From: Candidatus Desantisbacteria bacterium CG1_02_49_89
GTDB taxonomy: Bacteria; Desantisbacteria; UBA1551
Assembly (NCBI GenBank): GCA_001871075.1
Contig: MNUP01000143.1
Span: 1-62,376 of the forward strand
DNA: 62,376 nt
Reading direction: 5' to 3'
The notes under the pieces were generated by a model. That model did not search any database. It had not been told where the DNA came from and saw only the letters and a program-made list of their open reading frames with translations. The position numbers were made by a program, and so were the translations under genes. Positions 586 to 57,161 of the stretch are shown piece after piece. Numbering within the stretch: position 1 is the stretch's first letter; each line of letters starts with the position of its first letter.

Positions 586-1488
586 TTAGACATAGATTAG
601 CGCAGATTCCTGCGGTTCGGTAGAAATCCCTTTCCTGGCATAACGAAGGGTTTCTTTCTTTGCTTCGTTAAAAACCTTTGACAACAATACGATAAAATAT
701 TCCATCCAGGGCGTCAGATCAGCTTTGTTCCTGCCTTCATAATAATTATGGCCTGCATTCACCGTCAGGGCATTATAATAACCTTCTAATTCCCTGGCGT
801 GATGCTCTTCCAGTGAAAAAAATCCGTTTAATCCATAGCCGTCCCGCTGCAGGATAAAAGTTGCCAGAAGCCTGGCAGTTCTTCCATTGCCGTCATAATA
901 AGGATGAATGGTGACGAACTGATAATGAAGCAACCCCGCGATAACAGGAGCGGGTAATTTTGATCTTTCAGCGTATTTAACCCACCCGGCTAATTCAGAC
1001 ATAAGTTTCGGCACATCCTTTGCAGCGGGAGGGAGATACACGATCGCATTAGTAACAGAATCTTTTACCGCGTTCTGTTCGGTTCTGTAGGGAGTCGGTT
1101 TTGCCCGCGCACCCCTTTCCACCAGGGCATGCAGGCGGCGGATCAAGCTTTCAGTGAGCGGTGCTTTCAGGGCAGCCCAGTCTTCCACCCGCAATAAAGC
1201 GTTCCAATAATTACGGACTTCACTTATATCTCTTTCTCTGCCATGAAATTTTACACGCTTTTGCCTGATAGCCTGTTCGGCCTGTTTTAATGTCAGCTTA
1301 TTGCCCTCAATGCGCGTGGAATAGTGTGTTGATCTCACGCGTGCCTTATTCCTCAGCTCCAGCGCTACAACAGGCGCAAGCAAGGTATTTTCTACCACAG
1401 CCCTGGCAGACTCTATTTCCATTAAACTGCGGGCGATCGCGGAAGTAATATTATAAATTGGTTTCCAAATTAAACATTTTTTTGGCAT
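586..1488 (-). CDS. Fic family protein (AMPylase-type Fido domain)
   Basis: ORF 586..1590 trimmed to the ATG at codon 35 (MPKKCLIW...). Canonical Fic motif HPYYDGNGRTARLL is present. The 34 upstream codons are translated repeat DNA. Confidence 0.85.
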   Translation of the reverse strand: MPKKCLIWKPIYNITSAIARSLMEIESARAVVENTLLAPVVALELRNKARVRSTHYSTRIEGNKLTLKQAEQAIRQKRVKFHGRERDISEVRNYWNALLRVEDWAALKAPLTESLIRRLHALVERGARAKPTPYRTEQNAVKDSVTNAIVYLPPAAKDVPKLMSELAGWVKYAERSKLPAPVIAGLLHYQFVTIHPYYDGNGRTARLLATFILQRDGYGLNGFFSLEEHHARELEGYYNALTVNAGHNYYEGRNKADLTPWMEYFIVLLSKVFNEAKKETLRYARKGISTEPQESALIYV

Positions 1489-1504
1489 ACTCAATTCCTT
1501 AGTT

Positions 1505-1850
1505 AACCCCCTGCAGTCCGATGCAACATCGGACTCAATGCAGGGGCCTGCGCCCGCCAATATTCGTGGCGGGCTGCGGCACGAAAGCACTCCGCCCGAT
1601 GGCCATCGGGGCGGGTGAAAGCGTGCGATGAATCACGCCCCTACAAAGGGCGGGCAAGCCCGCCCTTACGTAAAAATGTCCCGATGAATCGGGACCGCTA
1701 CAGAAACACGCAAGCCTACCCCCGCAGACCTCCCTCCTAAAAGATTTGCACCTTAAATATTGGCGCATCCGCCAATTCTTAAGGCGGAGGCGGGCTGGGC
1801 GGGGGTCTTCGAAAAGCCCTGAGTTACGAAATCTCTTTGATTTGACACTT
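1505..1850 (-). repeat. REP/BIME-like mosaic of nested palindromes and GTAG+hairpin units
   Basis: Contains the 95-bp module also found at 2622..2709 and hairpin+CTAC/TTAC units at 1621..1644, 1648..1669 and 1678..1701. It also holds a ~90-bp palindromic module (1725..1816) repeated in inverse orientation at 7601..7686. Confidence 0.8.
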
Positions 1851-1851
1851 G

Positions 1852-2220
1852 TCATTTGGCACTATCTTTGTTCCTTCTATATAAAGCTGTATTCTCATAT
1901 ATAATTTTGCCGTTCTTTTTTATTTCTCCCAAAATATCCATATCATCAGCTTTTTTATATTCTTTTTCTGTGAATCCAAGCGCCTCAATTTCTGTTGTTT
2001 TGGTTTTCCATGCAATAGTTCCAAGCGCTACTAACCTGTCGAAATAATTCATGTTCTTAAAACCGTCAGAAACCACAGCTAAATCAATATCGCTGTATTT
2101 CTTATACCGGCCGTCAACGAATGATCCAAACAGCACAACCCTTTTTATAGCGAAGCGCTTATTAGTTTCTTTGATAAATTTATCTATAGTTTTTATAAGC
2201 TTAGTTTTTTCAGCAGCCAT
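1852..2220 (-). CDS. Minimal nucleotidyltransferase (MNT) of a HEPN/MNT pair
   Basis: LFGSFVDGRYKKYSDIDLAV matches the GS-X9-DxD nucleotidyltransferase signature. The gene overlaps the upstream HEPN gene by 28 nt. Confidence 0.8.
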   Translation of the reverse strand: MAAEKTKLIKTIDKFIKETNKRFAIKRVVLFGSFVDGRYKKYSDIDLAVVSDGFKNMNYFDRLVALGTIAWKTKTTEIEALGFTEKEYKKADDMDILGEIKKNGKIIYENTALYRRNKDSAK

Positions 2221-2591
2221 CTATATATCTCCATTGTATCAGAAATAATACCTGCGGCAATTTTGTAGCTTGAAATGTTCATCGCTTTTTTATATACCGG
2301 ATAACGCGTTATAATATAATATTTGTCAATTTTTATGATTTTGCTTATAATTTGTTTTGAAGGTTCAAGTTTAAGGATCTGGCATAATCTTTCTAATTTG
2401 TGAATATATGGCGGAACGGTTTTTTCGCGTTTGACGTAACCTGCCTTCAAGCATTTTTCCAGAGCTTGCTGGCATATAAAAGCACACCAGGTGTATCTGT
2501 GAGCCTTTAGCATAGCTTCAGCAGAAATTAAATCTTCTTTTGACATTTCCAACCAATATTTATAAACTAATTCAGGATTAATATTTTCCAT
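2193..2591 (-). CDS. HEPN domain protein (partner of MNT)
   Basis: 132-aa helical protein that overlaps the MNT gene. Size, context and AT-rich composition are typical of HEPN/MNT modules. Confidence 0.6.
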   Translation of the reverse strand: MENINPELVYKYWLEMSKEDLISAEAMLKAHRYTWCAFICQQALEKCLKAGYVKREKTVPPYIHKLERLCQILKLEPSKQIISKIIKIDKYYIITRYPVYKKAMNISSYKIAAGIISDTMEIYRWLLKKLSL

Positions 2592-2621
2592 TTTTTTGGC
2601 TTTTACAAATGACTACCTTTT

Positions 2622-2709
2622 AACCCCCTGCAGCTGCTGCGCAGCTCAATGCAGGGGCCTGCGCCCGCCAATAATCGTGGCGGGCTACGGCACGAAAGCA
2701 CTCCGCCCG
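2622..2709 (-). repeat. Second copy of the ~90-bp upstream module (compare 1505..1599)
   Basis: aaccccctgcag-[inner hairpin]-tcaatgcaggggcctgcgcccgccaatNNtcgtggcgggctNcggcacgaaagcactccgcccg is shared by both copies. Only the inner hairpin differs. Each copy sits 17-30 nt upstream of a start codon (fic, HEPN). Confidence 0.85.
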
Positions 2710-2810
2710 TCTTTCAGCGGGCGAGACTTCGCCCACCTGAAAGGATGGGCGAGGAAAGCACGAAAAAAGACATTTTTGGCTTCTCTTACAGAGCCTACGT
2801 CGGCAAACTG

Positions 2811-2880
2811 GACACTTGATACTAACAAGATCATGAAACAAACAATCAAGCATTTTACAGGGATCTTCGATAGAGATTTA
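2811..2880 (+). repeat. 70-bp repeat, copy 2 (identical to 303..372)
   Basis: Exact match read from the sequence. Confidence 0.9.
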
Positions 2881-2928
2881 GACTACTATATCTTGCCTTT
2901 TAAATCTCATTAAATCCCTGTGAAAAAG
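2851..2928. mobile_element. MITE-like inverted pair of TTTTACAGGGAT...GATTTA units
   Basis: cattttacagggatcttcgatagagattta (2851..2880) faces ttttaaatctcattaaatccctgtgaaaaag (2898..2928). Confidence 0.6.
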
Positions 2929-3031
2929 CATATCTTTTAACAGGGATCCTGCTACGCTCTTCGAGCTTTCTACTACGCTAAAGCTTCGAAGAACAAGTCG
3001 AAGGGTAAATTATTAAAAGAGATTAAAAACA

Positions 3032-3200
3032 TTTTTTACAGGGATCTTCGATAGAGATTTAAAATACAGTCATTTGTCCCACCCAGTAAGATTTCCTCCT
3101 TAAAGACTGGCGGACAAGGACGGGCAGGCATTAGTCATTTGTCATGAGTAAAAAACCATGGCTGAAACTATTAAATCTCTTTCGTAAGATCACTGAAAAG
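3032..3200. mobile_element. MITE-like inverted pair of TTTTACAGGGAT units with ~110-bp interior
   Basis: ttttttacagggatcttcgatagagatttaa (left) faces ttaaatctctttcgtaagatcactgaaaag (right, 3171..3200). The interior carries agtcatttgtc words twice. Confidence 0.55.
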
Positions 3201-3239
3201 AAAGGTGGTTTAACTCCTGACACCCAAATTTTACAAATC

Positions 3240-3524
3240 TTAGTAAGATTCCCCTCTTTCCTTAACAGTGAGCATAGATAGTATTTTTTCTTTTTCGTCA
3301 ATGGAATAAAAAAATCGCCAATCTCCAATGCGATATCTCCATACTTCATTATACTTGCCATGGAGTTTTTTTATGTTAAGGCCATAGTGGGGTTCTTCCT
3401 TTAATTGAGGATAAACATATTCAGCAAGCTTAAGTTTAATTTTTTCTTTGCGTCCTTTAAAGCCTTGGTGCTCTAACTTTTCAAGGAATTGGCTGGTTTC
3501 AAAAATTCTATACCTACCGCTCAT
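3240..3524 (-). CDS. RelE/ParE family toxin
   Basis: 94 aa. The C-terminal WRYRIGDWRFFYSIDEKEKILSMLTVKERGESY resembles RelE/ParE toxins. It overlaps the upstream antitoxin gene by 4 nt. Confidence 0.75.
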   Translation of the reverse strand: MSGRYRIFETSQFLEKLEHQGFKGRKEKIKLKLAEYVYPQLKEEPHYGLNIKKLHGKYNEVWRYRIGDWRFFYSIDEKEKILSMLTVKERGESY

Positions 3525-3760
3525 ACAAACCTGCCTTTTCTTTCTTTTGCCTGCCTTAAACCAGTATTTAATTCCCCGATTAGTTTTTTATCCTTCTCTA
3601 TTTCTGCCATCTCCGCTGAATCAACAAAAATCTCTTCTTCAAGTTTCCTTAATGCCAGTGTAGTGATAAAATTACTAATAGAGCGGTGGTCCCTTTTCGC
3701 TCCAATTACAAATTTTTTATAAACTTCCCCGGGCAGCGCTAATGTAATATTCTTGCTCAT
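3521..3760 (-). CDS. RHH/CopG-like antitoxin
   Basis: ATG at 3760 is preceded by AGGAGG (3765..3770). The N-terminus MSKNITLALPGEVYKKF is ribbon-helix-helix-like. The gene is translationally coupled to the RelE gene. Confidence 0.7.
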   Translation of the reverse strand: MSKNITLALPGEVYKKFVIGAKRDHRSISNFITTLALRKLEEEIFVDSAEMAEIEKDKKLIGELNTGLRQAKERKGRFV

Positions 3761-3781
3761 GTTTCCTCCTTGTTTATACTT

Positions 3782-3809
3782 ATTATACATAGAAATAAGT
3801 TTTTGTCAA
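3782..3809 (-). promoter_or_regulatory. Sigma70-type promoter of the RHH-RelE operon
   Basis: On the minus strand: TTGACA (3809..3804), 16-nt spacer, TATAAT (3787..3782), about 20 nt upstream of the ATG at 3760. Confidence 0.6.
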
Positions 3810-3977
3810 ATATGGGATATTAAATTCCAGTACAATCCTGTTAAAGACTTTTTTACAGGGAACTTAAGAGAACTTAGATTGCTTTTAAATCACTGTGAAA
3901 AGCCTTTAAAGCATTTACAGGGATCTTCGAACGGGATTTAGACTGCTGTTTTCAGGGCTCCCACCTTAAGAATACAT

Positions 3978-4246
3978 CAGGGCTGAAGCCCTGAGTTACG
4001 AAATACGCGGGCTTGATAAATCAAGCCCCTACAAACGTGCGATGAATCGCACCGCTACAAAGGGCGGGTGAAATATCCGGGCTCAATGAATTGAGCACCT
4101 ACATACACGCAGGCTTAAGCCTGCGGCTACAAAGGGCGGGCAACCGCCCATGAGATGGGCGAGTTCTCTGAAGCCCGCCCCTACGTAAAAATGTCCCGAT
4201 GAATCTTATCCCTGCAGCGCCTCCGGCGCTTAATGCAGGGACCTAC
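3978..4246 (-). repeat. Head-to-tail array of 7 GTAG+hairpin (REP/BIME-like) units
   Basis: Seven different GC-rich stem-loops are each followed on the + strand by CTAC/TTAC (unit ends near 3999, 4032, 4058, 4102, 4130, 4184 and 4246). Confidence 0.8.
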
Positions 4247-6228: not shown

Positions 6229-6385
6229 GTTTGAAATCCTCCTTTCCTTTTAGAAGATGATTACAGCGATTAAAGACCGATGTCAGCGATAAAAACATTT
6301 TTTACAGGGATCTTCGAACGGGATTTAAACTACTGATATCAGGGCTGAAGCCCTGAGTTACGAAAGCTGTAACTGTAATAAATCA

Positions 6386-7351: not shown

Positions 7352-7410
7352 ACTGCCTCCTTTGTAGTGTCAGAGTATCAAAGTGAAAAAAAGTGATAAT
7401 ATTGTATACT

Positions 7411-7439
7411 ATTATATACTAAAAAATAAGAAAAGTCAA
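7411..7439 (-). promoter_or_regulatory. Sigma70-type promoter of the wza-wzc operon
   Basis: On the minus strand: TTGACT (7439..7434), 17-nt spacer, TATAAT (7416..7411), about 60 nt upstream of the wza ATG. Confidence 0.6.
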
Positions 7440-7440
7440 G

Positions 7441-7858
7441 TTTCGCGGGTAGCGAACCCTTGTATCGTGCATCGTAACATCGTAGCATCGCCCGCCCCGA
7501 TGGTCCTCGGGGCGAGGTCTCGCCCCAAAGGGGCGGATAACATCGTTTTTTAGATACATCAGGGCTGAAGCCCTGAGTTACGCAAACTGTAACTATAACT
7601 CAGACCTTTTCGAAGACCCGCCTCCGCCTTAAGAATTGGCGGATGCGCCAATATTTAAGGTGCAAATCTTTAAGGATGGAGGTCTGATAAATACATCAGG
7701 GCGAGCCCTCGCCCCTTTGGGGCGGGCGAAATACGCGGGCTTGATAAATCAAGCCCCTACACCGCAAAGTTACCCCCGCAGACCTCCCTCCTAATAAAAC
7801 TGGCGGGTCTTCGAAAAGGTCTGCCCTACGAAAACACGCAAAGCTACTACGAAAGATG
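7441..7858 (-). repeat. REP/BIME-like mosaic (word array, GC hairpins, inverted copy of the 1725..1816 module)
   Basis: Contains atcgt words (7462..7490), the hairpin family copy at 7560..7582, the palindromic module at 7601..7686 and hairpin+CTAC units at 7737..7760 and 7819..7829. Confidence 0.8.
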
Positions 7859-9610: not shown

Positions 9611-9667
9611 GATTACGGTGATTTCTAAAAAAATGATTACAGTGATTATTAGAAGATGATTACGGTG
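9611..9667 (-). promoter_or_regulatory. Three direct CACYGTAATC words immediately upstream of the ptsI SD
   Basis: gattacggtg (9611), gattacagtg (9635) and gattacggtg (9658) on the + strand, spaced 23-24 bp. Confidence 0.5.
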
Positions 9668-9800
9668 TTGAAACTTTTTACAGGGATTCAAAGAGATTTA
9701 AACTGCCGTTTTCAGGGCTAAAGCCCTGAGTTACTTATGTATGACGTACAGCTTGCCCGCCAATTTTACTGGGCGGGACTTACGACGCTCGACGGCATTA

Positions 9801-10076: not shown

Positions 10077-10165
10077 TTATGAATTATGAATCAAAAACAA
10101 GGATTTTTTATTTAAAATTAACTCCTTGCAGTTAATTCATAACTCATAATTCATAACTCATAATT
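10077..10165 (-). mobile_element. Short member of the ATTATGA-arm MITE-like family
   Basis: ttatgaattatgaatc (10077..10092) is complementary to attcataa words in 10134..10165. The core caaaaacaagg resembles caacaacaagg in other copies. The element covers the GH57 stop codon. Confidence 0.6.
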
Positions 10166-12323: not shown

Positions 12324-12400
12324 CCACGGAGACACGGAGGCACAGAGAATCAATTTCTTGCTTTCAACTTTTAACCTTTAACATTTAACTTTCAACTATT
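12324..12400. repeat. CCACGGAGACACGGAGGCACAGAGAA module followed by a TTAAC/TTCAAC word array
   Basis: The module recurs at 50311..50336, inverted at 20669..20692 and degenerate at 255..282. The word array at 12361..12400 resembles 14444..14487. Confidence 0.75.
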
Positions 12401-14091: not shown

Positions 14092-14298
14092 TTTTTTACA
14101 GGGATTCACGAGATTCATAATGCCGTCGTGCGTCATGCGTCGAACGTCTTACGTAAATACCGTCGTATGTCGTAGGTCATACGTTTAAAAGATTCATGCG
14201 CACGACGCAAGACGTACGACGTTCGACGTGAAACGAACGACGTACGACTTACGACGTAAGACGGAATCTAAATCTCTTTCGAAGATCACTGTAAAAAG
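14092..14298. mobile_element. MITE-like element: TTTTACAGGGAT-type inverted termini around a CGTACGACG-word hairpin
   Basis: ttttttacagggattcacgagattcataa (14092..14120) faces ggaatctaaatctctttcgaagatcactgtaaaaag (14263..14298). The interior is an imperfect palindrome of cgtacgacg/cgtcgtatg words. Confidence 0.6.
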
Positions 14299-14487
14299 CT
14301 TTTACAGGGATCCTGCGAGCGGGATTTAAACTGCTGTTCCAGGGCTGAAACCCTGAGTTACATTGCAAACCTAAAGGTTTGCCCTACGAAAACTAATAGC
14401 AGAGCAAGCTCTGCCACTACCAAAACACGCAGACCTTCTGGTTTTCAACCTTTAACTTTTAACCTTTAACCTTCAACGTTCAACCGT
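14299..14487 (-). repeat. Solo TTTTACAGGGAT unit, three hairpin+CTAC units and a TTCAAC word array covering the hprK stop
   Basis: Unit at 14299..14331. Hairpin units at 14340..14361, 14365..14387 and 14399..14420. Words at 14444..14487. Confidence 0.75.
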
Positions 14488-15421
14488 TATCGGACTGCAG
14501 CGCGCGCCTTTTTAGGCTCTCGTTGAGCTCGAAGGCGCTGAGCACGCCCATTTTTTTCAGGCGGTAATTCATTGCCGCGACCTCAATAATAATTGCCAGG
14601 TTCCTTCCGGGCCTGACAGGTATTATTAATTTAGGAAGCTGTATCCCCAGGATCGAACACTTGCTATCTTTCAGGCCCAGCCTTTCATAGGACTTGCCCT
14701 TTTTCCATTCCTCCAGGAAAACCACCAGCTCTATTCTTTTCTTGTCTCTGATACCCCTTGTCCCGAAAAGGTTCTTGATATCTATTATGCCAAGCCCCCT
14801 GATCTCCATATGATGGCCTATCATGTCGTTTGAACTGCCGCTCAGGGTCCTTCCGGGCTCTGCTTTCATCTTTATCACGTCGTCGGCTACCAGCCTGTGC
14901 CCCCTTTCGATCAGTTCCAGGGCAGTCTCGCTCTTCCCCATTCCGCTGTTGCCCTGTATAAGGACCCCCACTCCGTACACCTCAACAAGGTCGCCGTGGC
15001 ACGTGTAAACCGGGGCAAGCTCTGACGCAAGCGAAAAGGTCAGCTTGCTTATGAATTCCTGTGTCTCCATGTCCGTCGAAAATAACGGAGTGGAGTATTT
15101 CTCGCAGAATTTCAGTATATCGGGCGGCGGCTTAAGGTTTTTCGTCATTATAATGCAGGGCAGGTTTGTGGAAAAAAATTCGCGCAGGCGCTCCCTGCGT
15201 GTTCCGGGTTTCAGTCCGCGCAGGTACGAAAATTCGGTCATACCCAGTATCTGCATCCTTTTCGAAGGGAAATACTGGAAATAACCGCTGAAAGCCAGGC
15301 CTGGACGGTTTATTTCGGAAAAAACAACCTTGCTGCCAAGCCCCTTCCCGCCGGCTACCAGCCTGAGCCTGAGGTTTTTTTTCTCACTTTCAAAAATATC
15401 GCGGACGGTAAGCTGTGCCAT
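14480..15421 (-). CDS. hprK: HPr kinase/phosphorylase
   Basis: P-loop and signature GVGVLIQGNSGMGKSETALELIERGHRLVADD. 313 aa. Confidence 0.9.
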   Translation of the reverse strand: MAQLTVRDIFESEKKNLRLRLVAGGKGLGSKVVFSEINRPGLAFSGYFQYFPSKRMQILGMTEFSYLRGLKPGTRRERLREFFSTNLPCIIMTKNLKPPPDILKFCEKYSTPLFSTDMETQEFISKLTFSLASELAPVYTCHGDLVEVYGVGVLIQGNSGMGKSETALELIERGHRLVADDVIKMKAEPGRTLSGSSNDMIGHHMEIRGLGIIDIKNLFGTRGIRDKKRIELVVFLEEWKKGKSYERLGLKDSKCSILGIQLPKLIIPVRPGRNLAIIIEVAAMNYRLKKMGVLSAFELNESLKRRALQSDNG

Positions 15422-15530
15422 CCCACCCCCTATAAATCCAGTGTCCAGTCAAAACAATTATAAATGTAAAACAGATTCCTTCATTTTACATTTTTAATTT
15501 TAAATTTTTAATTGAACATTGTCACTGCAG

Positions 15531-16056: not shown

Positions 16057-16063
16057 TTAAAGC

Positions 16064-16140
16064 TTTTTTACAGGGATTTAAAGAGATTTAAGAGGCTGAA
16101 ATACATTACAGTTTAAATCCCGTTGAATCCCTGTTAAAAA
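16064..16140. mobile_element. Minimal MITE-like hairpin of TTTTACAGGGAT units
   Basis: ttttttacagggatttaaagagatttaag faces gtttaaatcccgttgaatccctgttaaaaa across an ~18-nt loop. Confidence 0.6.
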
Positions 16141-16210
16141 TTTCTTTGCATCGAATAGACCTAAATTTTACATTTTACAATTTGCATTTTACATTTTGCA
16201 ATGATTCAGT

Positions 16211-16777
16211 TTATGGTTCTAAAAGCCCGTATTTCCCGTCCTTGCGCTTGTAAATTATATTAAGCCTGTAATTATCCGCGTTCTGAAAAACCAGAAAGAT
16301 ATTCCCGGAAAGGTCAAGCTGCGCCTTCGCTTCGTCCACGGTCATCGGCTTGGTTACCGGTATTTTTTTAACTACGACGCCTTCGGGCGCGCCCTCGCCC
16401 GGGCCCGGCGCGTATCCTGCGCCTGAAGCGGCAAGCATTTCTTCTTTATCATGTGTCGCGCCAAGCATTGATCTTCTTTTCTTTTCGCTTTTGAGCTTAT
16501 CCTTGAATTTCCTGGCCTGTTTTTCAAGCTTTTCTTTTACCGCGTCAATTGAAGCGTACATGTCAGACGTTGAAGCCTGGGCGTAAATAACCGTTCCCTT
16601 CCCGGTCCCGCCTATAGTGACTTCCGCGAGGAACATTTCCCTTTCCGCGCCGAGGATCGCGTTAGCCCAGTCGCCATCCCTTCTGAAATATTTTTCGAGG
16701 GACAAGATCCTTTTTCTGATATAAGCCTTGATGGGGTCCGTGAGCTCAATGTGCTTTCCGGTGATCGAAATGTCCAT
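16211..16777 (-). CDS. hpf: Ribosome hibernation promoting factor (long HPF)
   Basis: RaiA/sigma54-modulation N-domain plus a C-terminal dimerisation domain (NADNYRLNIIYKRKDGKYGLLEP). Strong SD. Confidence 0.85.
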   Translation of the reverse strand: MDISITGKHIELTDPIKAYIRKRILSLEKYFRRDGDWANAILGAEREMFLAEVTIGGTGKGTVIYAQASTSDMYASIDAVKEKLEKQARKFKDKLKSEKKRRSMLGATHDKEEMLAASGAGYAPGPGEGAPEGVVVKKIPVTKPMTVDEAKAQLDLSGNIFLVFQNADNYRLNIIYKRKDGKYGLLEP

Positions 16778-16796
16778 GCCCTCTCCTTTGAACAGA

Positions 16797-16905
16797 AATT
16801 ATGAATCAGGGCTAAAGCCCTGAGTTATCCGCCCCGATGTCCATCGGGGCGAGACCTCGCCCCGAAGGGGCGGGCAATAGAAATCCTTGTTGTTGATTCA
16901 TAATT
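16797..16905 (-). mobile_element. ATTATGA-arm MITE-like element forming the 3' end of nnr
   Basis: An 11-bp perfect inverted repeat, aattatgaatc (16797..16807) and gattcataatt (16895..16905), encloses the 22-nt hairpin (16807..16828) and a GC palindrome also seen at 7490..7540. Confidence 0.65.
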
Positions 16906-18428
16906 GATTTAATGGCGTAAGGCACTTTTTCGGCGATATCGGAGGCGATAACGCCTATTTCGCCTTTTTCTTCAGCCGCAAGGTCTCCGGCAAGGCCGTG
17001 GATATACACGCTGGTTTTAGCTGATCCAAGCGCGCTTATTTTCTGCCCCAGCAAAGCGGCCATGATACCGGCCAGCACGTCCCCGCTGCCCCCGGTCGCC
17101 ATACCCGGATTACCTGTAAGGTTAATCCACACGTTTCCTTCCGGGCACGCGATCACTGTCCTCGCGCCCTTCAGGACCGTGACAACCCCGTATTCAGCGG
17201 AAAAATCCTTTGCTGCCTCGATCCTGCGGGACTGGATCTCCCCGATCGTTTTTCCTGTCAGGAACGCCATCTCCCCGGGGTGCGGGGTGATTATCGTCGT
17301 AGATGCTTTTCTTTTTTTGAGTATTTCCGCGTTCCCCTTCAGCGCGAATATCGCATCAGCATCTATGACCATCGGTTTCCCGATGCCTTCTATTATCTCT
17401 ACTGCCAGCCTGCAGGTTTTGCCGGCCCTGGAAAGCCCGGGCCCTACGGCAACAGCGTCAGTTTCTTCCGAGAACCTGAGTATTTCTCCGAAAGCTTCTT
17501 CGCCAAGCGACCGGTTCTCGGTCTCCGGCAGGGGTTTCGTCATTGCCTCTGTCAGTTTTATTTCAAGTATGTTATTAAGGCTTGCGGGCACACCCGCTGT
17601 TACAAGCCCCGCGCCGCTCCGCAGCGCTCCCAGGCATGCCAGCGTTGTCGCGCCCGTCATCCCGGCTGAACCTGAAATTATGAAAACGCGCCCGTACGTG
17701 CCTTTGTGCGTGTCCTGTTTCCTTGGTTCCAAAACTGAAGCCGCGTCTTCCCGGGTTATCATATTCAACCAGGATGTACCAACCAGGCCCCGCGGTATAC
17801 CGATATCAAGCACCTTTATTTTTCCCGCGTATTCCGCTCCCGGAAAAAGCATCAGGCCTTTTTTCGGCAGTCCCAGGGTAAAAGTGTGATCCGCCGCGAC
17901 GCAGGCGCCGTTCACTTCTCCGTTATCCGCGTTAAGGCCGGACGGGACGTCAATGGAGATCTTCAGGGAATCAGTGCTGTTCAGTAAACTTATTGCTTCC
18001 GCTTCTATTCCTTTTATCTCTCCCCTGAAACCGGTCCCGAACAGCGCGTCGATAACCGCGCCGCAATCCCGCAGGTCCCGCGCTAATCCACCGGTTGCCT
18101 TCACGCTATGGACGTTGCCGCCGGACTTCCTGAGCAGGCCAAGGTTCTTCTTCGCGAGGGGTGAGAGATCTTTTACGTCATTAAAAATAAACACTTCAGG
18201 GCTGGTCCCTCTTTCCCCGAGGTGCCTTGCCGCCACAAAACCGTCTCCGCCGTTGTTGCCCTTTCCGCACAGGACGCATATTTTCTTCCTTTTAAAGCCG
18301 GGCAGCAGCTTTATGGCCTCGAGCGCCGCGTTCCTGCCGGCGTTTTCCATCATCTGGGCGCGGCTCACCCCGTGCTTTTCAGCCGCTTCCTCGATCCCGG
18401 CCATTTCTTTTGCGGTTACTACTCTCAT
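16812..18428 (-). CDS. nnr: Bifunctional NAD(P)H-hydrate repair enzyme (epimerase + ADP-dependent dehydratase)
   Basis: YjeF_N motif GKGNNGGDG and dehydratase motif GGSGDVLAGI. The last ~30 codons (QQQGFLLPAPSGRGLAPMDIGADNSGL) are encoded by repeat DNA. Confidence 0.85.
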   Translation of the reverse strand: MRVVTAKEMAGIEEAAEKHGVSRAQMMENAGRNAALEAIKLLPGFKRKKICVLCGKGNNGGDGFVAARHLGERGTSPEVFIFNDVKDLSPLAKKNLGLLRKSGGNVHSVKATGGLARDLRDCGAVIDALFGTGFRGEIKGIEAEAISLLNSTDSLKISIDVPSGLNADNGEVNGACVAADHTFTLGLPKKGLMLFPGAEYAGKIKVLDIGIPRGLVGTSWLNMITREDAASVLEPRKQDTHKGTYGRVFIISGSAGMTGATTLACLGALRSGAGLVTAGVPASLNNILEIKLTEAMTKPLPETENRSLGEEAFGEILRFSEETDAVAVGPGLSRAGKTCRLAVEIIEGIGKPMVIDADAIFALKGNAEILKKRKASTTIITPHPGEMAFLTGKTIGEIQSRRIEAAKDFSAEYGVVTVLKGARTVIACPEGNVWINLTGNPGMATGGSGDVLAGIMAALLGQKISALGSAKTSVYIHGLAGDLAAEEKGEIGVIASDIAEKVPYAIKSIMNQQQGFLLPAPSGRGLAPMDIGADNSGL

Positions 18429-18512
18429 TTCTTTTCCTTAAAAAAGATACTGGATCCTGGATACTGGATGTCCCAAAGGTCCCAAGGGGATCCCTTTGGA
18501 AGATCCCTTCGG

Positions 18513-18641
18513 GAAATGATGAAATTCGAAAACATTCTGTAAAACTGCACAAGAATGTTGCCCGAAGGGCAAAGTTATGAGTCAGGGCTAAAGCCCTGAG
18601 TTACGATTTAAAGCCTTGTTATTAATTCATAACTCATAATT
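18513..18641 (-). mobile_element. ~129-bp composite intergenic module (copy of 54743..54869, same orientation relative to transcription)
   Basis: The reverse complement aligns with 54743..54869 apart from a few mismatches and one hairpin loop (cttgtgcagttttacag vs ctcgtgtggcttgctg). It starts at the acpS stop codon. Confidence 0.8.
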
Positions 18642-19014
18642 ATTTTTTAAAAATAATTGCATTGGCGACCGCGTAATCCTTGCAGTGCGATATGCTGACC
18701 AGCACCTTCCTGCCTCTCAATCTTTTCTTTTGCCTTTCGCCCACCCTGACTTCAGCCACGCCGTCGCCGTTATTTATTATTTCAAAATCGGTCCACTTCA
18801 ATCCCTTGCGCCAGAAACCTGTTTTAAGCGCTTTGGCTATCGCCTCTTTCGCGGCGAATCTTCCGGCGAAATGCAGGAGCGGGAACCTTTTAGATCCGCA
18901 GTATTTCTTTTCATTCCCGGTAAAAACCTTCTTAAGGAAGCCATCTCCCCATTTCCTGAGCGCCGCCCTGATCTTTTTTACCTCAACGATGTCTATTCCG
19001 ATCCCTTCGATCAT
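18640..19014 (-). CDS. acpS: Holo-[acyl-carrier-protein] synthase
   Basis: MIEGIGIDIVEV N-terminus. 124-aa 4'-phosphopantetheinyl transferase. Confidence 0.85.
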   Translation of the reverse strand: MIEGIGIDIVEVKKIRAALRKWGDGFLKKVFTGNEKKYCGSKRFPLLHFAGRFAAKEAIAKALKTGFWRKGLKWTDFEIINNGDGVAEVRVGERQKKRLRGRKVLVSISHCKDYAVANAIIFKK

Positions 19015-19998: not shown

Positions 19999-20101
19999 CC
20001 TGTTTTCCAAACCGCCCCCCGTCCCTTCCTTGCTTCAGTATCAAGTATCAAGTATCAGGTATCAAGTTTAATACTAAAATTCAAATCTTCAGACGGGACA
20101 C

Positions 20102-21808: not shown

Positions 21809-21971
21809 TCTTTACCTCCGTAAATACAGTCATTAGTCATTTGAAAAAGATAATTATGAATTATGAATTATGAATCAACAGCAAGGTTTTTATTTCAACT
21901 GTATTAATCCGTTGTATTAATCCGTGGGTATCCGTGGCTGAATGTAGTTCTCCGGGAACTCTGTGGTTTGG

Positions 21972-29686: not shown

Positions 29687-29960
29687 TTCTCCTCCACTGC
29701 GTATCAACGTATCAACGTGTCAACGTGTCAGAGTTTTTACTCGTACATCGTTCTTCGTGCATCGTGCATCGCAAACAATTCTCTGTGCCGTAGGGTCATT
29801 GACCTGGTTCTGACCCGAAGGTCCCTGCGTTATAGCTCCGGCTTCATCGGAGCTGCAGGGAACTCAGTGCCTCCGTGGTATATCATTTATTCGTATGCAT
29901 CCCGCCTCTTCGGCGGATCGCCGTAGTGGCGACCGTCTGCATTTATACAATCCGTCTGAA

Positions 29961-32475: not shown

Positions 32476-32564
32476 ATATTAGATTTCAGCGATAAAAAAT
32501 CCCGATTACATCGATGGAAAAAAAATTAAATTATCGCTGCAATCGTCTTTTGAAATCGCTGTAA

Positions 32565-32852
32565 TCACTCGATTATTCTTGGGACCTTGAAATGCCCCCT
32601 GTCCTTGGCAGGCGCGTTCGAAAGCGCTTCTTCCCCGCTCAGGGACGGGCCGGCTTTGTCCTGCCTGAAAACGTTTTTAAGCCGGACCGCGTGGGTTGTC
32701 GGTTCAACGCCTTTAGTGTCCAGCTCGCTCAGCTTGTCGATGTAAGCGAGTATCTTGTCCAGCTGGGCCGTGAATTCCTCTTTCTCGTCTTCGGTCAGCG
32801 CCAGCCTCGCAAGGTTAGCTATATATTCAACTGCCTTCCTGTCTATCTTCAT
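32565..32852 (-). CDS. gatC: Asp/Glu-tRNA amidotransferase subunit C
   Basis: 95 aa with VEYIANLARLALTEDEKEEFTAQLDKILAYIDKLSELDT, typical of GatC. Confidence 0.85.
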   Translation of the reverse strand: MKIDRKAVEYIANLARLALTEDEKEEFTAQLDKILAYIDKLSELDTKGVEPTTHAVRLKNVFRQDKAGPSLSGEEALSNAPAKDRGHFKVPRIIE

Positions 32853-32864
32853 TTTTAACCTCTT

Positions 32865-34217
32865 TTAAGTCGAATGCATCGCGGTAATATATTTTTTAGG
32901 CCAACTTAGAATCCTCTTTTTCCTGCTGTATGCTTCTTTAAAAGCGTCGTAAAAAGTCTCTAAGGAATCAATATTTTTTTTAAAAATCTTGTCTATCTCG
33001 TAATCCTCTTTAAGACCCATTGATTCTGCAAGGCCTTTTTTCATCGCTGATTTTATCCTGACCGTCCCGAACCTTTCAGACAGAGACGCTCCAAACAACG
33101 TCTCGAATTCGTCCTCAACCGGAAATTCCGGCTCTGAAGGCTTCTCTTTTACGACAACCCCGAATTCAGTCTCCTTTCCATCCCTTTCTATGACAATTTT
33201 TACTGTATCACCGATATTCATCACAAGAATAGCACTCTGCAGCTGCCAGATATTTTTAACCTGCGCACCGTTTATTTTCCTTATTACATCGTATTTCATC
33301 ATGAGCGGTCTAGTGTCAGCCACCGCAGCCACGATTACGCCCTCTTCAACCGTTATATTTTTCTTCTTCTCATCCTTCAGCCAGTCCTTGAGCTCCGTTG
33401 AAATGCAAAGGACCGCGATCCCGATCCAGGGTCTTTTTATCTGTTTAGTTTTTATGCCTTTGATTATTTCAGACGCCAGAGTGGACGGTACGGCAAAATT
33501 CAGGCCTTCGGAGTATTGCTTTGAGTAACCCGTGTAAGTTACTCCTATAACCTCACCTTTAGAATTGAGCAGCGGGCCTCCGATGCTGCCGGGATTTATG
33601 GCAGCATCTGTCTGCAAAAGACCCTCATATTCAAGGTAATCAAAACAGCGGTCTCTGGCGCTTATGATACCGCGCGTAACGGATTTTTCCAGGCCAAGCG
33701 GGTTCCCCACCGCGAACACCTGTTCCCCGACGGTAATATTCTCGGAATTTCCGAGCTTCAACGGAACAAAGGAGCATTCGGTTTCAACCTGCAGCAGGAC
33801 CAGACAGGAGGCATAATCCTGCATAAAAATCCTGGCTCCGTATTCCTTCTTGTCCGACGACATGATCTTGATCTCTTCTATCTCGTCTGTATCGTTGAAA
33901 AATCCATTGCACGTCATAACATAGCATACCGTGTCAATTTTGTCCGCGACAAAACCAGAACCTACATCGGTAAACTGGGATGCTCTCTCCTTTTTAACGC
34001 GTATTCCCACCACGTTCAGCGCTGCATCCCCGATAACTTTGGTCACGCTGCCTTCATCGGTCTTCTGCCCGGCCTGCGTGAGCCTGGCCCCGCAGCCTGT
34101 GCAGAACTTGTTCGCACCGTCGTTTTTCGTCCCGCATTCCGGGCAGAAAGCGGCTAATGCGATCCCCGAAACAAAAATCAAAGTGACCGCAAAAAGAAAC
34201 AGTAGTATTTTCTTCAT
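32865..34217 (-). CDS. HtrA-like pseudoprotease with N-terminal TM + zinc ribbon and PDZ (paralog 1)
   Basis: Aligns with paralogs 2 and 3, but all triad positions are substituted: TNAHV to TCNGF, TDIAVL to SCLVLL, GNSGGP to GSIGGP. Confidence 0.8.
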   Translation of the reverse strand: MKKILLFLFAVTLIFVSGIALAAFCPECGTKNDGANKFCTGCGARLTQAGQKTDEGSVTKVIGDAALNVVGIRVKKERASQFTDVGSGFVADKIDTVCYVMTCNGFFNDTDEIEEIKIMSSDKKEYGARIFMQDYASCLVLLQVETECSFVPLKLGNSENITVGEQVFAVGNPLGLEKSVTRGIISARDRCFDYLEYEGLLQTDAAINPGSIGGPLLNSKGEVIGVTYTGYSKQYSEGLNFAVPSTLASEIIKGIKTKQIKRPWIGIAVLCISTELKDWLKDEKKKNITVEEGVIVAAVADTRPLMMKYDVIRKINGAQVKNIWQLQSAILVMNIGDTVKIVIERDGKETEFGVVVKEKPSEPEFPVEDEFETLFGASLSERFGTVRIKSAMKKGLAESMGLKEDYEIDKIFKKNIDSLETFYDAFKEAYSRKKRILSWPKKYITAMHST

Positions 34218-34251
34218 GTTATTTTCATATTAACTGCCTACCCTGCGGATC

Positions 34252-35712
34252 TCAGGTGGAATTCATGGCAACGTATTCCTGCCTCCACGGGTAATAATAT
34301 TTTGACCATTCACCCCCGTCGTTTTTGTTGAAATATATTTCCCATTCAATATATTTCAATTCATAGTTATAAGCGCTCCTGAAAGCATTATAAAAATTTT
34401 CCACCGAACCCGTTTCAAGCCGGTCCCCGCCCTTTTTCTTATTGACAAGAACCGTCGTTATCTCCCAACCTTCTTTAAGGCCCATGCCCACCGCGAGGCA
34501 TTTGGACCTTACCTTTTCTATTTTGGCTCCGCCGCTGCCCTTGGAGAACGTTGCGCCAAACATGATGTCAACCTCATCTTCAACCGGAAATCTTGCCTGC
34601 AAAGGTTTCTCGGTCATCTTGACCTTGAAATTCATCTCTTTTCCGTTTCTTAGCACGGTTACGCTTAGTTCGTCGCCGATCTTTCTGCCCAGAATTTCTT
34701 TTTGCAAATCCCAGACCTTTTTTATTGACATCTCATCCAGTTTTACAACAATATCTCCCTTCTTAAAAGGAAGCTCCTTGCCTTCGGCAATGGACGCTAT
34801 AAACACCCCGTCTGTCTCGGTAATTTTTCTTTCATGCGCGGCCTCTTCCCATTGCTTCAGATCCGGCGTAAGGTCCTGGACAGCGATCCCGATCCACGGG
34901 CGCTTTACCTTGCCAGCCGGAATGTATTTCATGGTATCCAAGACAAGCGGCGCCGGAATGGCGAAGTTCAAGCCTTCTGTGTACCACTTTGAATAACCCA
35001 GGGAGGTAACACCCACAACTTCCCCCCGCATATTGAAAAGCGGGCCGCCGCTGTTACCGGGATTAACAGCTGCATCCGTCTGGAGAAGACCTTCGTATTC
35101 ATAGCAGCCCAGGTATCTTCCCTTTGCGCTTATTATCCCGGAGGATGTAGATCTTTCAAGCCCTATGGGATTTCCTATCGCGAATACTTTTTCTCCTGAT
35201 TGCAGGATGTCTACATTGCCGAATTTCACGGGAACTATGCCTTCCGCCTGGATCCTCAATACGGCAAGGTCAGCCTGATAATCACAGAGCAGTATCCCTG
35301 CCTCGTATTCTTTCTTGTCCGACATGACAACTTTGACTCCCTCAAGGTCCTCAGGGTCGTCAATCACGTGCGCATTCGTTATAATATAACCTTCCTTGCT
35401 GACTATAAAGCCTGAACCCATATCCTGATACTGAGCGTTAAGCTCGTTTTTGAGCGTGCGGACAAGCACTACGGAGGGAGCGACTTTCTCAACTATCTTC
35501 GGTAATTCGTCATCTGCGTCAGTTTTTGCTTCCTTCCCGGTCTTTGCTGTTCCTTCCGCCTGCTTAAGCTTCGCCCCGCAGCTTGTGCAGAACTTCGCGG
35601 AATCGTCGCATTTGGTTCCGCATTCAGGACAAAAACCGGCGAAGTCCAATGCTGCCGTAAAAATAAACACACTCACCAAAGCAAAAATAATAAAGAACAA
35701 ACGTTTGCCCAC
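34252..35712 (-). CDS. HtrA/DegP-like serine protease with N-terminal TM + zinc ribbon and PDZ (paralog 2)
   Basis: CPECGTKCDDSAKFCTSCG ribbon, triad motifs ITNAHVI, DLAVLRI and NPGNSGGPL, and PDZ region(s). GTG start at 35712, 6 nt after AGGAGG. Confidence 0.8.
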   Translation of the reverse strand: MGKRLFFIIFALVSVFIFTAALDFAGFCPECGTKCDDSAKFCTSCGAKLKQAEGTAKTGKEAKTDADDELPKIVEKVAPSVVLVRTLKNELNAQYQDMGSGFIVSKEGYIITNAHVIDDPEDLEGVKVVMSDKKEYEAGILLCDYQADLAVLRIQAEGIVPVKFGNVDILQSGEKVFAIGNPIGLERSTSSGIISAKGRYLGCYEYEGLLQTDAAVNPGNSGGPLFNMRGEVVGVTSLGYSKWYTEGLNFAIPAPLVLDTMKYIPAGKVKRPWIGIAVQDLTPDLKQWEEAAHERKITETDGVFIASIAEGKELPFKKGDIVVKLDEMSIKKVWDLQKEILGRKIGDELSVTVLRNGKEMNFKVKMTEKPLQARFPVEDEVDIMFGATFSKGSGGAKIEKVRSKCLAVGMGLKEGWEITTVLVNKKKGGDRLETGSVENFYNAFRSAYNYELKYIEWEIYFNKNDGGEWSKYYYPWRQEYVAMNST

Positions 35713-35788
35713 AACACACCTCCTGTCCGTTCTGAACCACTTTCGCCGGACAGTGCCATCCTGCTTACCGAAACTCAAACATGTCTGC

Positions 35789-37228
35789 CTATGTTGATAA
35801 GACTGAAACTATATACTCCTCCCAGTCTTTATAGTAATTGCCTGATCCGGGGCTGTAGCCAAGCTTCCACTCCAGTCGTTTCCTTTCATAATTATAACTG
35901 CTCCTGAATGCCTGCAGAAAATTTTCTACCGAACCCGTCTCAATCTGGCTTCCTCCTGTTTTTTTATTAAACCACACGTACCGAATTTCATATCCCGTTT
36001 TAAAACCAAGATGTTCTATTAAACCATCGGGTTTAACCTCTTCTATCCTGACCCTTCCGTTCTGTTCCTTGAAAACGCCACCCAGTATAATATCGGCTTC
36101 GTCCTCAAGGGGGAATTTTACCTCCAGGGGCTTTTCCGTCAATCCGATCTTGACATTCATTTCTTTGCCGTCGCGTTTTACGGTTAAATTAACCTCGTCC
36201 CCTATTTTCAATTTCAGGATCCCTGTCTGTAAATCCCATATTTTCTTAACAGGAGAACCGTTCAATTTTACTACTATATCACCTTTTTTCAATAACAGGT
36301 TCTTATCTTCCGCGATCGATTTGACAAGGACGCCCTCTGATTCTGTTATTTTCTTCTCGAAGACCGATTCTTCCCATTGCTTATTTGCGGGTGTCAGGTC
36401 CAGAACGGCAATCCCTATCCACGGGCGTTTTATCTTGCCCGATTTTAAGTATTTGAGAACATCCTGCGCGTAAAGGACGGGTATTGCTAGATTCAGGCCC
36501 TCAGTGACGCTTTTAGAATATCCAAGCGAAGTTATGCCTATCACTTCACCCTGCATGTTGAAAAGCGGGCCGCCGCTGTTGCCCGGGTTGATTGCCGCGT
36601 CGGTCTGGAGAAGACCTTCGTATTCATAACAACCCACGTATCTTTCTTTGGCGCTTATTATCCCGTTGGTGGTTGACCTTTCAAGCCCTAAGGGATTCCC
36701 GACCGCAAAAACCTTTTCCCCTGATACAAGCTTCTCAGCATCGCCTAATTTTACCGGAATTAGGTTCGCAGCCTGTATCTTTAATACTGCAATGTCAGTG
36801 GCGTAATCGTTGATAATGAGCTTTGCCTCATATTCTTTTTTATCCGACATAACTACATTTATCTTTTCAAGCTCATCCGGATCTCCAATAACGTGGGCGT
36901 TTGTAATAATATATCCTTCTTTATCCACTACAAAGCCCGAGCCCCTGTCCTGGAACTGGGCATTCAACTCATTTTTCAGAGTTCTCACCAGTATAACTGA
37001 AGGAGCAACCTGCTCAACCATCTTAGAAAGGTCGGCATCGCCTCCGGGTTTGGATGGCTTTTCTGCTTTTCCTTCACCTTCCGCCTGCTTAAGCTTCGCC
37101 CCGCAGCTTGTGCAGAACTTTGCGGAATCATCGCACTTGGTCCCGCATTCAGGGCAGAATCCCGCAAGGACCGTGCCTGCGGCCAGAAGCATACCTAATA
37201 CAAGAACAAAAACCAGGACCTTTTTCAT
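35789..37228 (-). CDS. HtrA/DegP-like serine protease with N-terminal TM + zinc ribbon and PDZ (paralog 3)
   Basis: MKKVLVFVLVLGMLLAAG TM segment, the same zinc ribbon, and ITNAHVI, DIAVLKI and NPGNSGGPL motifs. Start set to ATG 37228. Confidence 0.85.
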   Translation of the reverse strand: MKKVLVFVLVLGMLLAAGTVLAGFCPECGTKCDDSAKFCTSCGAKLKQAEGEGKAEKPSKPGGDADLSKMVEQVAPSVILVRTLKNELNAQFQDRGSGFVVDKEGYIITNAHVIGDPDELEKINVVMSDKKEYEAKLIINDYATDIAVLKIQAANLIPVKLGDAEKLVSGEKVFAVGNPLGLERSTTNGIISAKERYVGCYEYEGLLQTDAAINPGNSGGPLFNMQGEVIGITSLGYSKSVTEGLNLAIPVLYAQDVLKYLKSGKIKRPWIGIAVLDLTPANKQWEESVFEKKITESEGVLVKSIAEDKNLLLKKGDIVVKLNGSPVKKIWDLQTGILKLKIGDEVNLTVKRDGKEMNVKIGLTEKPLEVKFPLEDEADIILGGVFKEQNGRVRIEEVKPDGLIEHLGFKTGYEIRYVWFNKKTGGSQIETGSVENFLQAFRSSYNYERKRLEWKLGYSPGSGNYYKDWEEYIVSVLST

Positions 37229-37335
37229 AACACACCCCCAGGGCAAACCTTTCTGGGTCAGATACGCATGGATATAGATACTTCCAACGATATTTCAATC
37301 TATGAAATCTGTTTTTAAATCGTGTCCCTAAAGGA

Positions 37336-37535: not shown

Positions 37536-37628
37536 TAATATATACCCTTAAAATACAATTATGAGTTATGAGTGAGTACACTAATGAAGGAATTTCATTA
37601 TTTAACAATATAATTTAAAGGCTCTGAT

Positions 37629-49268: not shown

Positions 49269-49328
49269 CTGCAGTCCATGGTCCATAGACCATAGTCCAT
49301 AGCAAACAAACAATTTTTATTTGCTTAA

Positions 49329-49361
49329 CACCGTAATCGTTAGTTAATAATCACCGTAATC
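49329..49361 (+). promoter_or_regulatory. Two direct CACCGTAATC words upstream of the acsD SD
   Basis: caccgtaatc at 49329..49338 and 49352..49361 (23 bp apart), followed by atatttttaaggagg. Confidence 0.5.
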
Positions 49362-49380
49362 ATATTTTTAAGGAGGAAAA

Positions 49381-50310: not shown

Positions 50311-50384
50311 CCACGGAGGCACGGAGACACAGAGAAATCTGTTCTGGTTATAAACTTGACACTTGATACTTGACTCTTGATACT
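50311..50384. repeat. CCACGGAGGCACGGAGACACAGAGAA module followed by a TTGATAC word array
   Basis: It starts directly after the acsD stop. The module is shared with 12324..12349 and 20669..20692, and the words gacacttgatacttgactcttgatac resemble 303..316. Confidence 0.75.
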
Positions 50385-50393
50385 AAAAATAAT

Positions 50394-50425
50394 CACCGTA
50401 ATCGCATTTTGAAATCACCGTAATC
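50394..50425 (+). promoter_or_regulatory. Two direct CACCGTAATC words upstream of the acsA SD
   Basis: caccgtaatc at 50394..50403 and 50416..50425 (22 bp apart). Confidence 0.5.
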
Positions 50426-50441
50426 ATGAAACGGAGAAAAT

Positions 50442-57104: not shown

Positions 57105-57105
57105 T

Positions 57106-57137: not shown

Positions 57138-57161
57138 ATATTTAAAAAAAGGAGAACGAAA

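Follow-up and report, generated by a model that had tools for sequence, protein, structure and literature searches.

REP, BIME and REPIN sequences of E. coli and Pseudomonas are high-copy, extragenic or intercistronic repeats of mosaic build that often lie just past stop codons, and in Neisseria the Correia elements (CREE) carry 26-bp ends that are fixed, along with a TA duplication and a site for IHF. Heptamer direct repeats (STRR) were reportedly described in cyanobacteria by Mazel et al. in 1990, and the Rickettsia palindromic elements of Ogata et al. (2000) are said to lie in frame within genes, with the downstream frame kept. Here we describe a family of palindromic repeats whose arms are built from the heptamer ATTATGA, found in a 62,376-nt stretch (positions 1 to 62,376 of contig MNUP01000143.1, assembly GCA_001871075.1) of Candidatus Desantisbacteria bacterium CG1_02_49_89, and in particular the copy at 16797-16905, which lies at the 3' end of the nnr gene. 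The whole stretch is referred to below as the window.

Three other systems are especially relevant. In Coxiella burnetii, wherever QMITE1 or QMITE2 has entered a functional gene it lies at the 3' end, where it gives C-terminal residues and/or the stop, and EnhC of the Dugway strain has gained 33 residues from a QMITE (PMC5896051). An RU-1/ERIC sequence is fused to the amidase gene ECA3499 of E. carotovora, such that the normal stop is lost and the protein runs for about 35 residues past its conserved domain (PMC2759123). TAACTGA repeats are heptamers found at gene boundaries, next to start or stop codons, in Beggiatoaceae, Cyanobacteria and Bacteroidetes; the forward repeats have stops in all three frames, sometimes lie over the upstream stop, and have been proposed as sites for an RNA-binding protein of the CspA, S1 or CsrA type (PMC4679880).

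The 3' end of nnr and its repeat-encoded tail

The nnr gene (16812-18428, minus strand) encodes a bifunctional NAD(P)H-hydrate repair enzyme of 538 aa with YjeF_N and Carb_kinase domains (Pfam), and the cistron 3' of it is hpf (16211-16777, minus), for a ribosome hibernation factor (Pfam). A complete short copy of the ATTATGA-armed element (16797-16905, 109 nt, minus) separates the point where conservation of nnr ends from the ribosome-binding site (RBS) of hpf (AAAGGAGAGG, 16780-16789, minus), which is preserved immediately 3' of the element. In mRNA sense the copy consists of AATTATGAATCA, ACAACAAGGATTTCTATTG, three hairpins and TGATTCATAATT, all features being on the minus strand. The 5' arm (AATTATGAATCA, 16894-16905) has a single heptamer unit with its TGA out of the nnr frame, and is followed by the family core (ACAACAAGGATTTCTATTG, 16875-16893), for which comparison of copies gives the consensus ATCAAC-N2-CAAGG. 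A nested GC-rich double hairpin (CCCGCCCCTTCGGGGCGAGGTCTCGCCCCGATGGACATCGGGGCGG, 16829-16874), recognised by repeat search and alignment of copies, comes next, and then a REP-like hairpin of the form (G/A)TAAC-TCAGGGCTTTAGCCCTGA, here ATAAC-TCAGGGCTTTAGCCCTGA (16806-16828). The 3' arm (TGATTCATAATT, 16797-16808) is completed by TTCATAATT, and the two arms form a perfect terminal inverted repeat of 12 nt (16797-16808 and 16894-16905). In the predicted RNA fold they close a three-hairpin junction (-51.8 kcal/mol, z -6.0). The double hairpin and the REP hairpin are also present independently of the element: the former occurs without arms at 7492-7536 and 7681-7725, has a k-mer depth 46-74x the unique depth in three metagenomes, and is found, identical, within family copies on contigs L123, L126 and L127, and the latter, as GTAAC-TCAGGGCTTTAGCCCTGA, has 8 copies in the window.

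The reading frame of nnr passes into the element with base three of the Ser508 codon (16905). After residue 503 no stop interrupts it before the TAG at 16812-16814, which sits where loop and stem meet in the hairpin TCAGGGC-TTTA-GCCCTGA. The translation of 538 residues ends ..YAIKSIMNQQQGFLLPAPSGRGLAPMDIGADNSGL, or in a longer stretch ..AEKVPYAIKSIMNQQQGFLLPAPSGRGLAPMDIGADNSGL. An earlier note, made from the letters of this DNA, had claimed that the frame enters the element at about 16905 and runs through some 30 repeat codons to a TAG in a hairpin loop, and had proposed alignment with orthologs as a check. Homology does end at that point. The Pfam Carb_kinase match reaches position 241 of the 242-position profile and stops at residue 503, most of the tblastn alignments to 80 species genomes go no further than query residue ~509, and the 120 best database relatives of Nnr cover 93-97% of the query. 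Most of 12 aligned relatives (44-62% identity) stop 0-8 residues past the ..YAIKSI column, the exceptions being one protein that is 3 residues longer (P0009) and another with its own insert (P0002), and none of the 12 shares the tail. Judged from these alignments, the last 30 codons of nnr (509-538, IMNQQQGFLLPAPSGRGLAPMDIGADNSGL) together with the stop (16812-16904) are repeat DNA in the reading frame. The AlphaFold model of Nnr has a mean predicted local distance difference test score (pLDDT) of 85.7, with pLDDT below 50 at residues 514-538, and the tail is predicted by it to be disordered. The tail is probably an ordinary, neutral by-product; its predicted tryptic peptides are SIMNQQQGFLLPAPSGR and GLAPMDIGADNSGL.

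The gene order phoH-acpS-nnr-hpf-ptsN-hprK-GH57-GH57-HPr-ptsI is kept in three relatives, and their junctions are compact. The L086 gene has ..AFKEV as its last residues, and the TGA that follows them shares bases with the start codon ATG of hpf (GTGATG; GGAGGTGTGATG); in L088 the nnr-hpf spacer is 56 nt. At this junction the L085 gene (558 aa, from a 62%-identical relative) has received another repeat, GC-rich and ~150 nt long (L085:11520-11676), which adds ~50 in-frame codons and is followed by a retained stop/start overlap, GTGTGATG; a related copy of this repeat is in another spacer of the contig (L085:5429-5473). The nnr-hpf junction thus appears to have been invaded independently by two unrelated repeats. 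The acpS-nnr and GH57-HPr junctions of the relatives measure -20 to 27 nt, with the exception of one 99-nt spacer that contains REP hairpins. Two L086 genes also end inside REP hairpins (L086:7160-7185 and L086:9240-9330): the GH57 amylase ends ..KCNSGL* on the REP found in the nnr copy (tail ..NVTQGFSPDGVGVKCNSGL*, with two tandem REPs in two frames), and the GH57 branching enzyme ends ..ASGLKS* on the reversed REP.

The element family and its position at gene boundaries

Six loci of the family are present in the window. The arm word AATTATGARTTATGAAT, allowing up to 2 mismatches, has 10 matches there versus 0.04 expected, and 0 of 100 shuffles reach 10. All five modules listed in the earlier note were located, and its count of five has to be raised by an arm-only fragment, AATTATGAGTTATGAGT, in a divergent promoter region (37557-37573, plus). 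A minimal symmetric copy occupies the junction of the GH57 amylase and HPr genes (10077-10165, minus), with the GH57 stop TGA (10158-10160) inside an ATTATGA unit. Two copies belong to a long subfamily: one without the distal arm (18513-18641, minus), where the acpS TAA (18640-18642) overlaps the first arm bases, and a complete one (54743-54882, plus) that begins 4-5 nt past the acsB TAA (54736-54738) and lies 18 nt ahead of the next start codon. These two are, as had been claimed, ~90% identical over the ~129-nt element (a count from the alignment) and diverge mainly in one hairpin; over 100 nt they are 96% complementary. The remaining copy (21852-21890, plus) is one-armed, with three units and the core, and is antisense to the flanking genes, 43 nt from a pilT-like start. 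Full copies had been described as ending in a complementary arm, which is true of those at 16797-16905 and 54743 and not of that at 18513. Tandem Repeats Finder (TRF) reports period 7 at 10077, 10133, 21852, 54743 and 54857.

When metagenome contigs were scanned for the core motif, at least 116 stretches were obtained, of which at least ~30 are non-redundant true copies, defined by ATTATGA words ahead of the core, and the rest are chance matches. All of the true copies are from groundwater and aquifer metagenomes, in one sample series with the window. Copies are 89-200 nt long. In this family an arm has 1-5 heptamers in tandem, which read (A/G)TTATGA at one end of the element and TCATAA(T/C) at the opposite end; census copies read 2-5 (A/G)TTATGA, ATCAAC-N2-CAAGG, one or more hairpins and 2-4 TCATAA(T/C), and the inverted arms in copies other than that of nnr comprise 14-28 nt of heptamers. 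The interior takes one of two forms, nested GC hairpins or a short hairpin rich in AT (CAAGGAnTT...AAnTCCTTG), and an alignment of nine copies reveals varied hairpins optionally inserted into a common backbone, which upholds the earlier picture of a dispersed family with REP-like hairpins nested in inverted arms. Small hairpins are inserted within the arms in L111, L123, L154 and L181, and L125 has the family core hairpin with other heptamer arms. Identical composites are found at distinct loci (W16905, the nnr copy, and L123, L126 and L127), indicating that composites are copied as units. The copies tested fold at -28 to -52 kcal/mol, with z -4.9 to -6.2. Taken together, the family is probably a dispersed, non-coding, mosaic palindromic repeat. 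The ATTATGA word may not be confined to one lineage, since ATTATGA arrays also stand beside long GTGACGACCGTCACG-type arrays at L144:5600-5800 (contig Ga0256406_1000858), which is apparently from another organism.

The arms had been said always to abut stop codons. For complete copies this is borne out in the wider census, in which genes were called as simple open reading frames (ORFs): the distance from the upstream stop to the near arm is -14 to +13 nt (median 4) in 27 of the 28 non-redundant copies listed with a callable upstream gene, and 23 nt from it in the other. It fails for the one-armed copy at 21852-21890, 85 nt from the stop, and for the promoter fragment at 37557. Stop adjacency is independent of the orientation of the core relative to transcription, and in convergent gene pairs (L133, L181) there is a stop at both arms. 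The upstream stop is nearer than the downstream start in all two-armed copies (16/16), and the far arm is a median of 18.5 nt from the next start, approximately an RBS plus spacer. In some copies (W10165, L126, L092, L111, L168) a heptamer's TGA serves as the stop and in others (W18641, L110, L142) the stop overlaps the arm; the spacers between stop and arm are A/T-rich, usually ending TA or CA. One-armed copies adjoin start codons (W21852, L092 twice, L123, L129). Both (ATTATGA)x3 and (TCATAAT)x3 have a stop in all three frames, and a single unit has one in one frame only.

Heptamer arrays of unrelated sequence are placed similarly in the window, where they begin 0-13 nt past stops. A CACGGAG array begins 1 nt past the stop at 50310, and a GGTTGAA/GGTTAAA array (14447-14489) contains the hprK stop, the TGA being in the first GGTTGAA unit. 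The stop preference of complete copies is real; because unrelated arrays are equally flush with stops and the junctions in relatives are very short, the pattern is better read as filling of the gap between stop and RBS than as targeting of stop codons.

Proposed insertion history and rival explanations

We propose, with a probability of about 0.6, that the element is a mosaic repeat resembling both MITEs (transposable elements that are miniature and have inverted repeats) and BIMEs, that it fills the narrow slot between stop and RBS in compact operons, and that the nnr copy is read through. The family would have spread at the DNA level by a transposase or recombination route and would now be fixed, with copies surviving where compact operons with translational coupling leave their sole permissive slot, from the last codons or stop to the next RBS. 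Three or more heptamer units present stops in every frame on both strands, so that a copy clipping the end of a gene would normally terminate it within a few codons and be tolerated, and as the ancestral space between stop and RBS would have been only a few nt, any tolerated insertion would abut the stop. The ancestral nnr stop probably overlapped or just preceded the hpf start. The copy inserted there would have had one heptamer unit, its TGA out of frame, and translation would for this reason cross the core and two hairpins, 30 codons in all, before reaching the TAG in the nested REP; such single-unit arms would explain why nnr is the sole read-through case.

A number of observations weigh against this proposal. 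Target-site duplications were sought at ~25 junctions (typically TA/ATTATGA...TCATAAT/TG) and none was consistent, a Pfam scan of 18 window ORFs found no transposase domain, and in ~440 kb of related contigs no transposase-sized interval lies between arms, arm pairs being 50-190 nt apart. The variable number of heptamers is unusual for ends recognised by a transposase. The same loci are 98-100% identical across samples, with no empty site and no 7-nt length change. Element-free nnr-hpf sites are found only in orthologs at 54-62% protein identity, from which the ancestral state of the junction would have to be deduced. Five spacers of more than 200 nt still have the arm flush with the stop, which fits pure gap filling only if the extra DNA arrived later, and the census comprises only the matches listed from the core-seeded scan, with simple-ORF gene calls.

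Further comparisons of close relatives gave the same picture. Flank-to-flank BLAST of 205 loci revealed no empty sites and no 7-nt length variants, all same-species contigs at nnr have the element, metagenome contigs aligned to the region contain no joint that removes it, with repeat-induced breaks and depth spikes only, and viral contigs have no match to it. The empty site at the 3' end of nnr for which the earlier note had called is thus available in the element-free orthologs and in none of the near-identical assemblies. The closest named genome, from an Nnr scan of genome contigs, has 46% identity, such that no near empty site is obtainable, and as nnr and hpf would become a single in-frame fusion if 16797-16905 were cut out precisely, the exact ancestral junction is not reconstructable from this sequence. 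Inverted ends (12 nt and perfect in nnr), small size and dispersed copies (6 window loci and at least ~30 others) with no transposase gene are all features of MITEs, and the description MITE-like remains apt to that extent; target-site duplication and presence/absence polymorphism between close relatives, which would be expected of a MITE, were not found. Given no sign of mobility, the family is filed as MITE/BIME-like by its architecture and not as a proven MITE.

Two other roles were considered and rejected. An integron attC site does not suit flanks that are syntenic housekeeping genes (acpS-nnr-hpf-ptsN-hprK) in three relatives, and in an assessment of intrinsic terminator or promoter function 18 terminator-like sites were found versus 15.8 expected, none convincing for any element. 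Rfam 15 has 0 matches at the gathering score in the whole window.

A different interpretation, which we regard as unlikely, is that the element is a module maintained by the host for its action in RNA and is not mainly selfish DNA, the Nnr tail being a side effect. The arrays could be multivalent sites for RNA-binding proteins of the CspA, S1 or CsrA type, or the stem could insulate, stabilise or process cistrons; as the arms are symmetric, every mRNA would read stop-(AUUAUGA)n ... (UCAUAAU)n-RBS in either orientation of the element. Flush and orientation-independent placement, the strength of the predicted folds, the many further heptamer arrays at gene boundaries and the stability of copies across samples are all as this would predict, and there is an analogy with the TAACTGA repeats beside start codons (PMC4679880). 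However, the flanking genes are functionally unrelated, the interiors are mosaics of unrelated nested hairpins, some copies are one-armed, antisense or in a promoter region, and the syntenic relatives do without elements. Nor is there a terminator signal or an Rfam family, and the RNA evidence is one 212-nt contig from a single metatranscriptome, which lies within nnr and does not bear on the tail. Any effect of the stable structures on the message would be conjectural.

It is quite improbable that stops or termination regions are actively targeted, by a transposase or recombinase that recognises A/T-rich DNA with TAA or TGA, or ATGA/TAATG overlaps. The near arm is within 13 nt in nearly all listed copies, including those between convergent genes and those in long spacers with other positions free, and the composition of the stop-to-arm spacers would also be in keeping with such recognition; but neither a target duplication nor a target motif is conserved, arrays whose words do not resemble stops (CACGGAG at 50312 and GATTGCAGCGAT-type motifs) abut stop codons just as closely, one-armed copies adjoin start codons, and the ancestral gaps are tiny anyway. 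Scarcely credible is the suggestion that the extended nnr frame is an artefact of assembly or annotation and that the real protein ends near residue 509. Assemblies do break within the repeats (contig ends at 16778, 16850 and 18581), and the tail is predicted from the reading frame only. Nevertheless, at least 16 contigs, with JGI, ENA and NCBI as their sources, have a called product of 538 or 530 aa, which is therefore not an accident of assembly, the frame is open from residue 503 to the TAG, and metagenome contigs that span the nnr junction show no differences.

If gap filling with read-through is correct, nnr provides a clean example of the remodelling of protein C-termini by selfish or structural repeats, in that relatives keep the overlapping stop and start; the different repeat at the same junction in L085 and the REP-derived NSGL* end of a second enzyme reinforce it. 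Stops in three frames and on two strands of tandem heptamers could explain their tolerance at gene ends. For annotators, C-terminal extensions in such metagenome genomes may be repeat-derived.

Other repeats of the window and comparison with known systems

Tandem arrays of period 7 number ~20 in the window and use at least 10 words besides ATTATGA (GGTTAAA, TGTAAAA, ACTTGAT, AAATTTG, AGTCCAT, ACGACGT, GATACTG and others). They fill spacers between genes, most of them flush with stops or 10-35 nt before starts. They include 12361-12397, 14202-14263, 14447-14489, 15483-15513, 16165-16197, 18446-18469, 20037-20067, 29741-29771, 49273-49302, 50354-50384 and 52484-52515, and period-8 arrays of CACGGAGA-type octamers are at 12325, 20637, 20669, 29700, 50312 and 61016. 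Heptamer arrays at gene boundaries throughout the genome are a more unusual feature than the tail. It is conceivable, though a long shot, that the ATTATGA element is the most visible part of a lineage-wide punctuation of gene boundaries, with at least 10 heptamer words, often as inverted pairs enclosing nested hairpins, at the stops and RBSs of nearly every expanded spacer. If this were true, a dedicated mechanism might generate or maintain the arrays, for instance a repeat-seeding enzyme, or RNA-binding regulators that read heptamers and take the place of translational coupling, and protein tails of repeat origin would be routine.

Clusters of REP-like GC hairpins with GTAG or GTAAC ahead of them are at 1591-1851, 3791-4242, 7352-7858, 9711-9733 and 14329-14360. 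This is the classic signature of REPs associated with RAYT transposases, and no RAYT is among the 18 window ORFs scanned. Copies of a further dispersed module, TTTACAGGGATCTTCGA(N)GATTTA, lie in either orientation and are often paired with the TCAGGGC hairpin (346-391, 2854-2899, 3035-3080, 3914-3959, 6301-6346, 9674-9719, 14302-14347, 16063-16091, 61055-61083 and 61131-61176). A paired motif, AATCACCGTAATC-(8-12 nt)-AATCACCGTAATCAT, is found 10-30 nt upstream of starts at 49327-49370, 50390-50427 and 57102-57139, and as a GATTGCAGCGATAA variant, also 10-30 nt upstream of starts, at 6254-6302, 9626-9669, 32531-32568 and 58034-58082; it could be an operator or other regulatory site, or another class of repeat. 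The most repeat-dense part of the window is the stretch 586-3790, where repeat spacers of 260-650 nt separate a gene with a Fic domain from two toxin-antitoxin-like pairs, HEPN/nucleotidyltransferase and ParE/RHH, and these from each other. Three tandem paralogs (450, 508 and 485 aa) at 32865-37246 have 61-75% nucleotide identity over 300-nt blocks.

Among described systems, the QMITEs are similar in that they are small, non-coding, multi-copy elements with inverted ends and stable stems. The ATTATGA family differs in having arms of variable tandem heptamers, no target-site duplication or cognate insertion sequence that we could find, and a position flush in operon junctions, and there is no sequence similarity. 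ERIC/RU-1 sequences are likewise imperfect palindromes of ~100-130 nt, co-transcribed between genes, and the tail of ECA3499 parallels that of Nnr, although the sequences are unrelated, with no Rfam match, and neither heptamer arrays nor nested REPs make up ERIC. The Correia elements are also ~100-150 nt long, abundant beside genes and co-transcribed, with inverted ends and long hairpins (reviewed in PMC10969869), but their fixed 26-bp ends, TA duplication and IHF site are absent here.

The likeness to REP/BIME sequences (a comparison drawn partly from the review PMC3184786) concerns the interior. The nested hairpins, and these only, are short (20-45 nt), high-copy, extragenic GC palindromes with a conserved 5' tetranucleotide or similar word, GTAG or GTAAC, the GTAG type being found at 1591-4242 and 7352-7858, and the nine-copy alignment has the mosaic combination with other conserved motifs. 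The AT-rich heptamer arms and the CAAGG core, in contrast, are not known from REPs. The Rickettsia palindromic elements are comparable as palindromic repeats translated, and tolerated, within an otherwise conserved protein. Unlike these, the ATTATGA copy replaces the C-terminus of Nnr and provides the stop, and the nnr frame does not resume, whereas it does so after the insertion in L085.

The TAACTGA and STRR sequences share the tandem 7-nt units, in sets of 2-6, their intergenic location beside start and stop codons at gene boundaries, and steps of 7 nt in their insertions and deletions, and TRF found ~15 further arrays of other words in the window. The word here is ATTATGA and not CCCCAGT, TTGGTCA, CAACAGT or TAACTGA, the host is neither cyanobacterial nor of the Beggiatoaceae, and at least 10 words coexist in the window genome. 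In addition, the ATTATGA arrays are inverted pairs that bound a palindrome with nested hairpins, and the near side is usually a stop. The heptamer-array phenomenon, known from cyanobacteria and Beggiatoaceae, is thereby extended to a groundwater lineage that is uncultivated, and this architecture could be used to test the action of such arrays on mRNA. Repeat-derived C-termini are already known from other bacteria, and they are recurrent in the lineage of the window (L086, L085). What seems to be new is the use of inverted heptamer arrays as the arms of a nested palindrome, set flush from stop to RBS in an uncultivated groundwater bacterium with many heptamer words.

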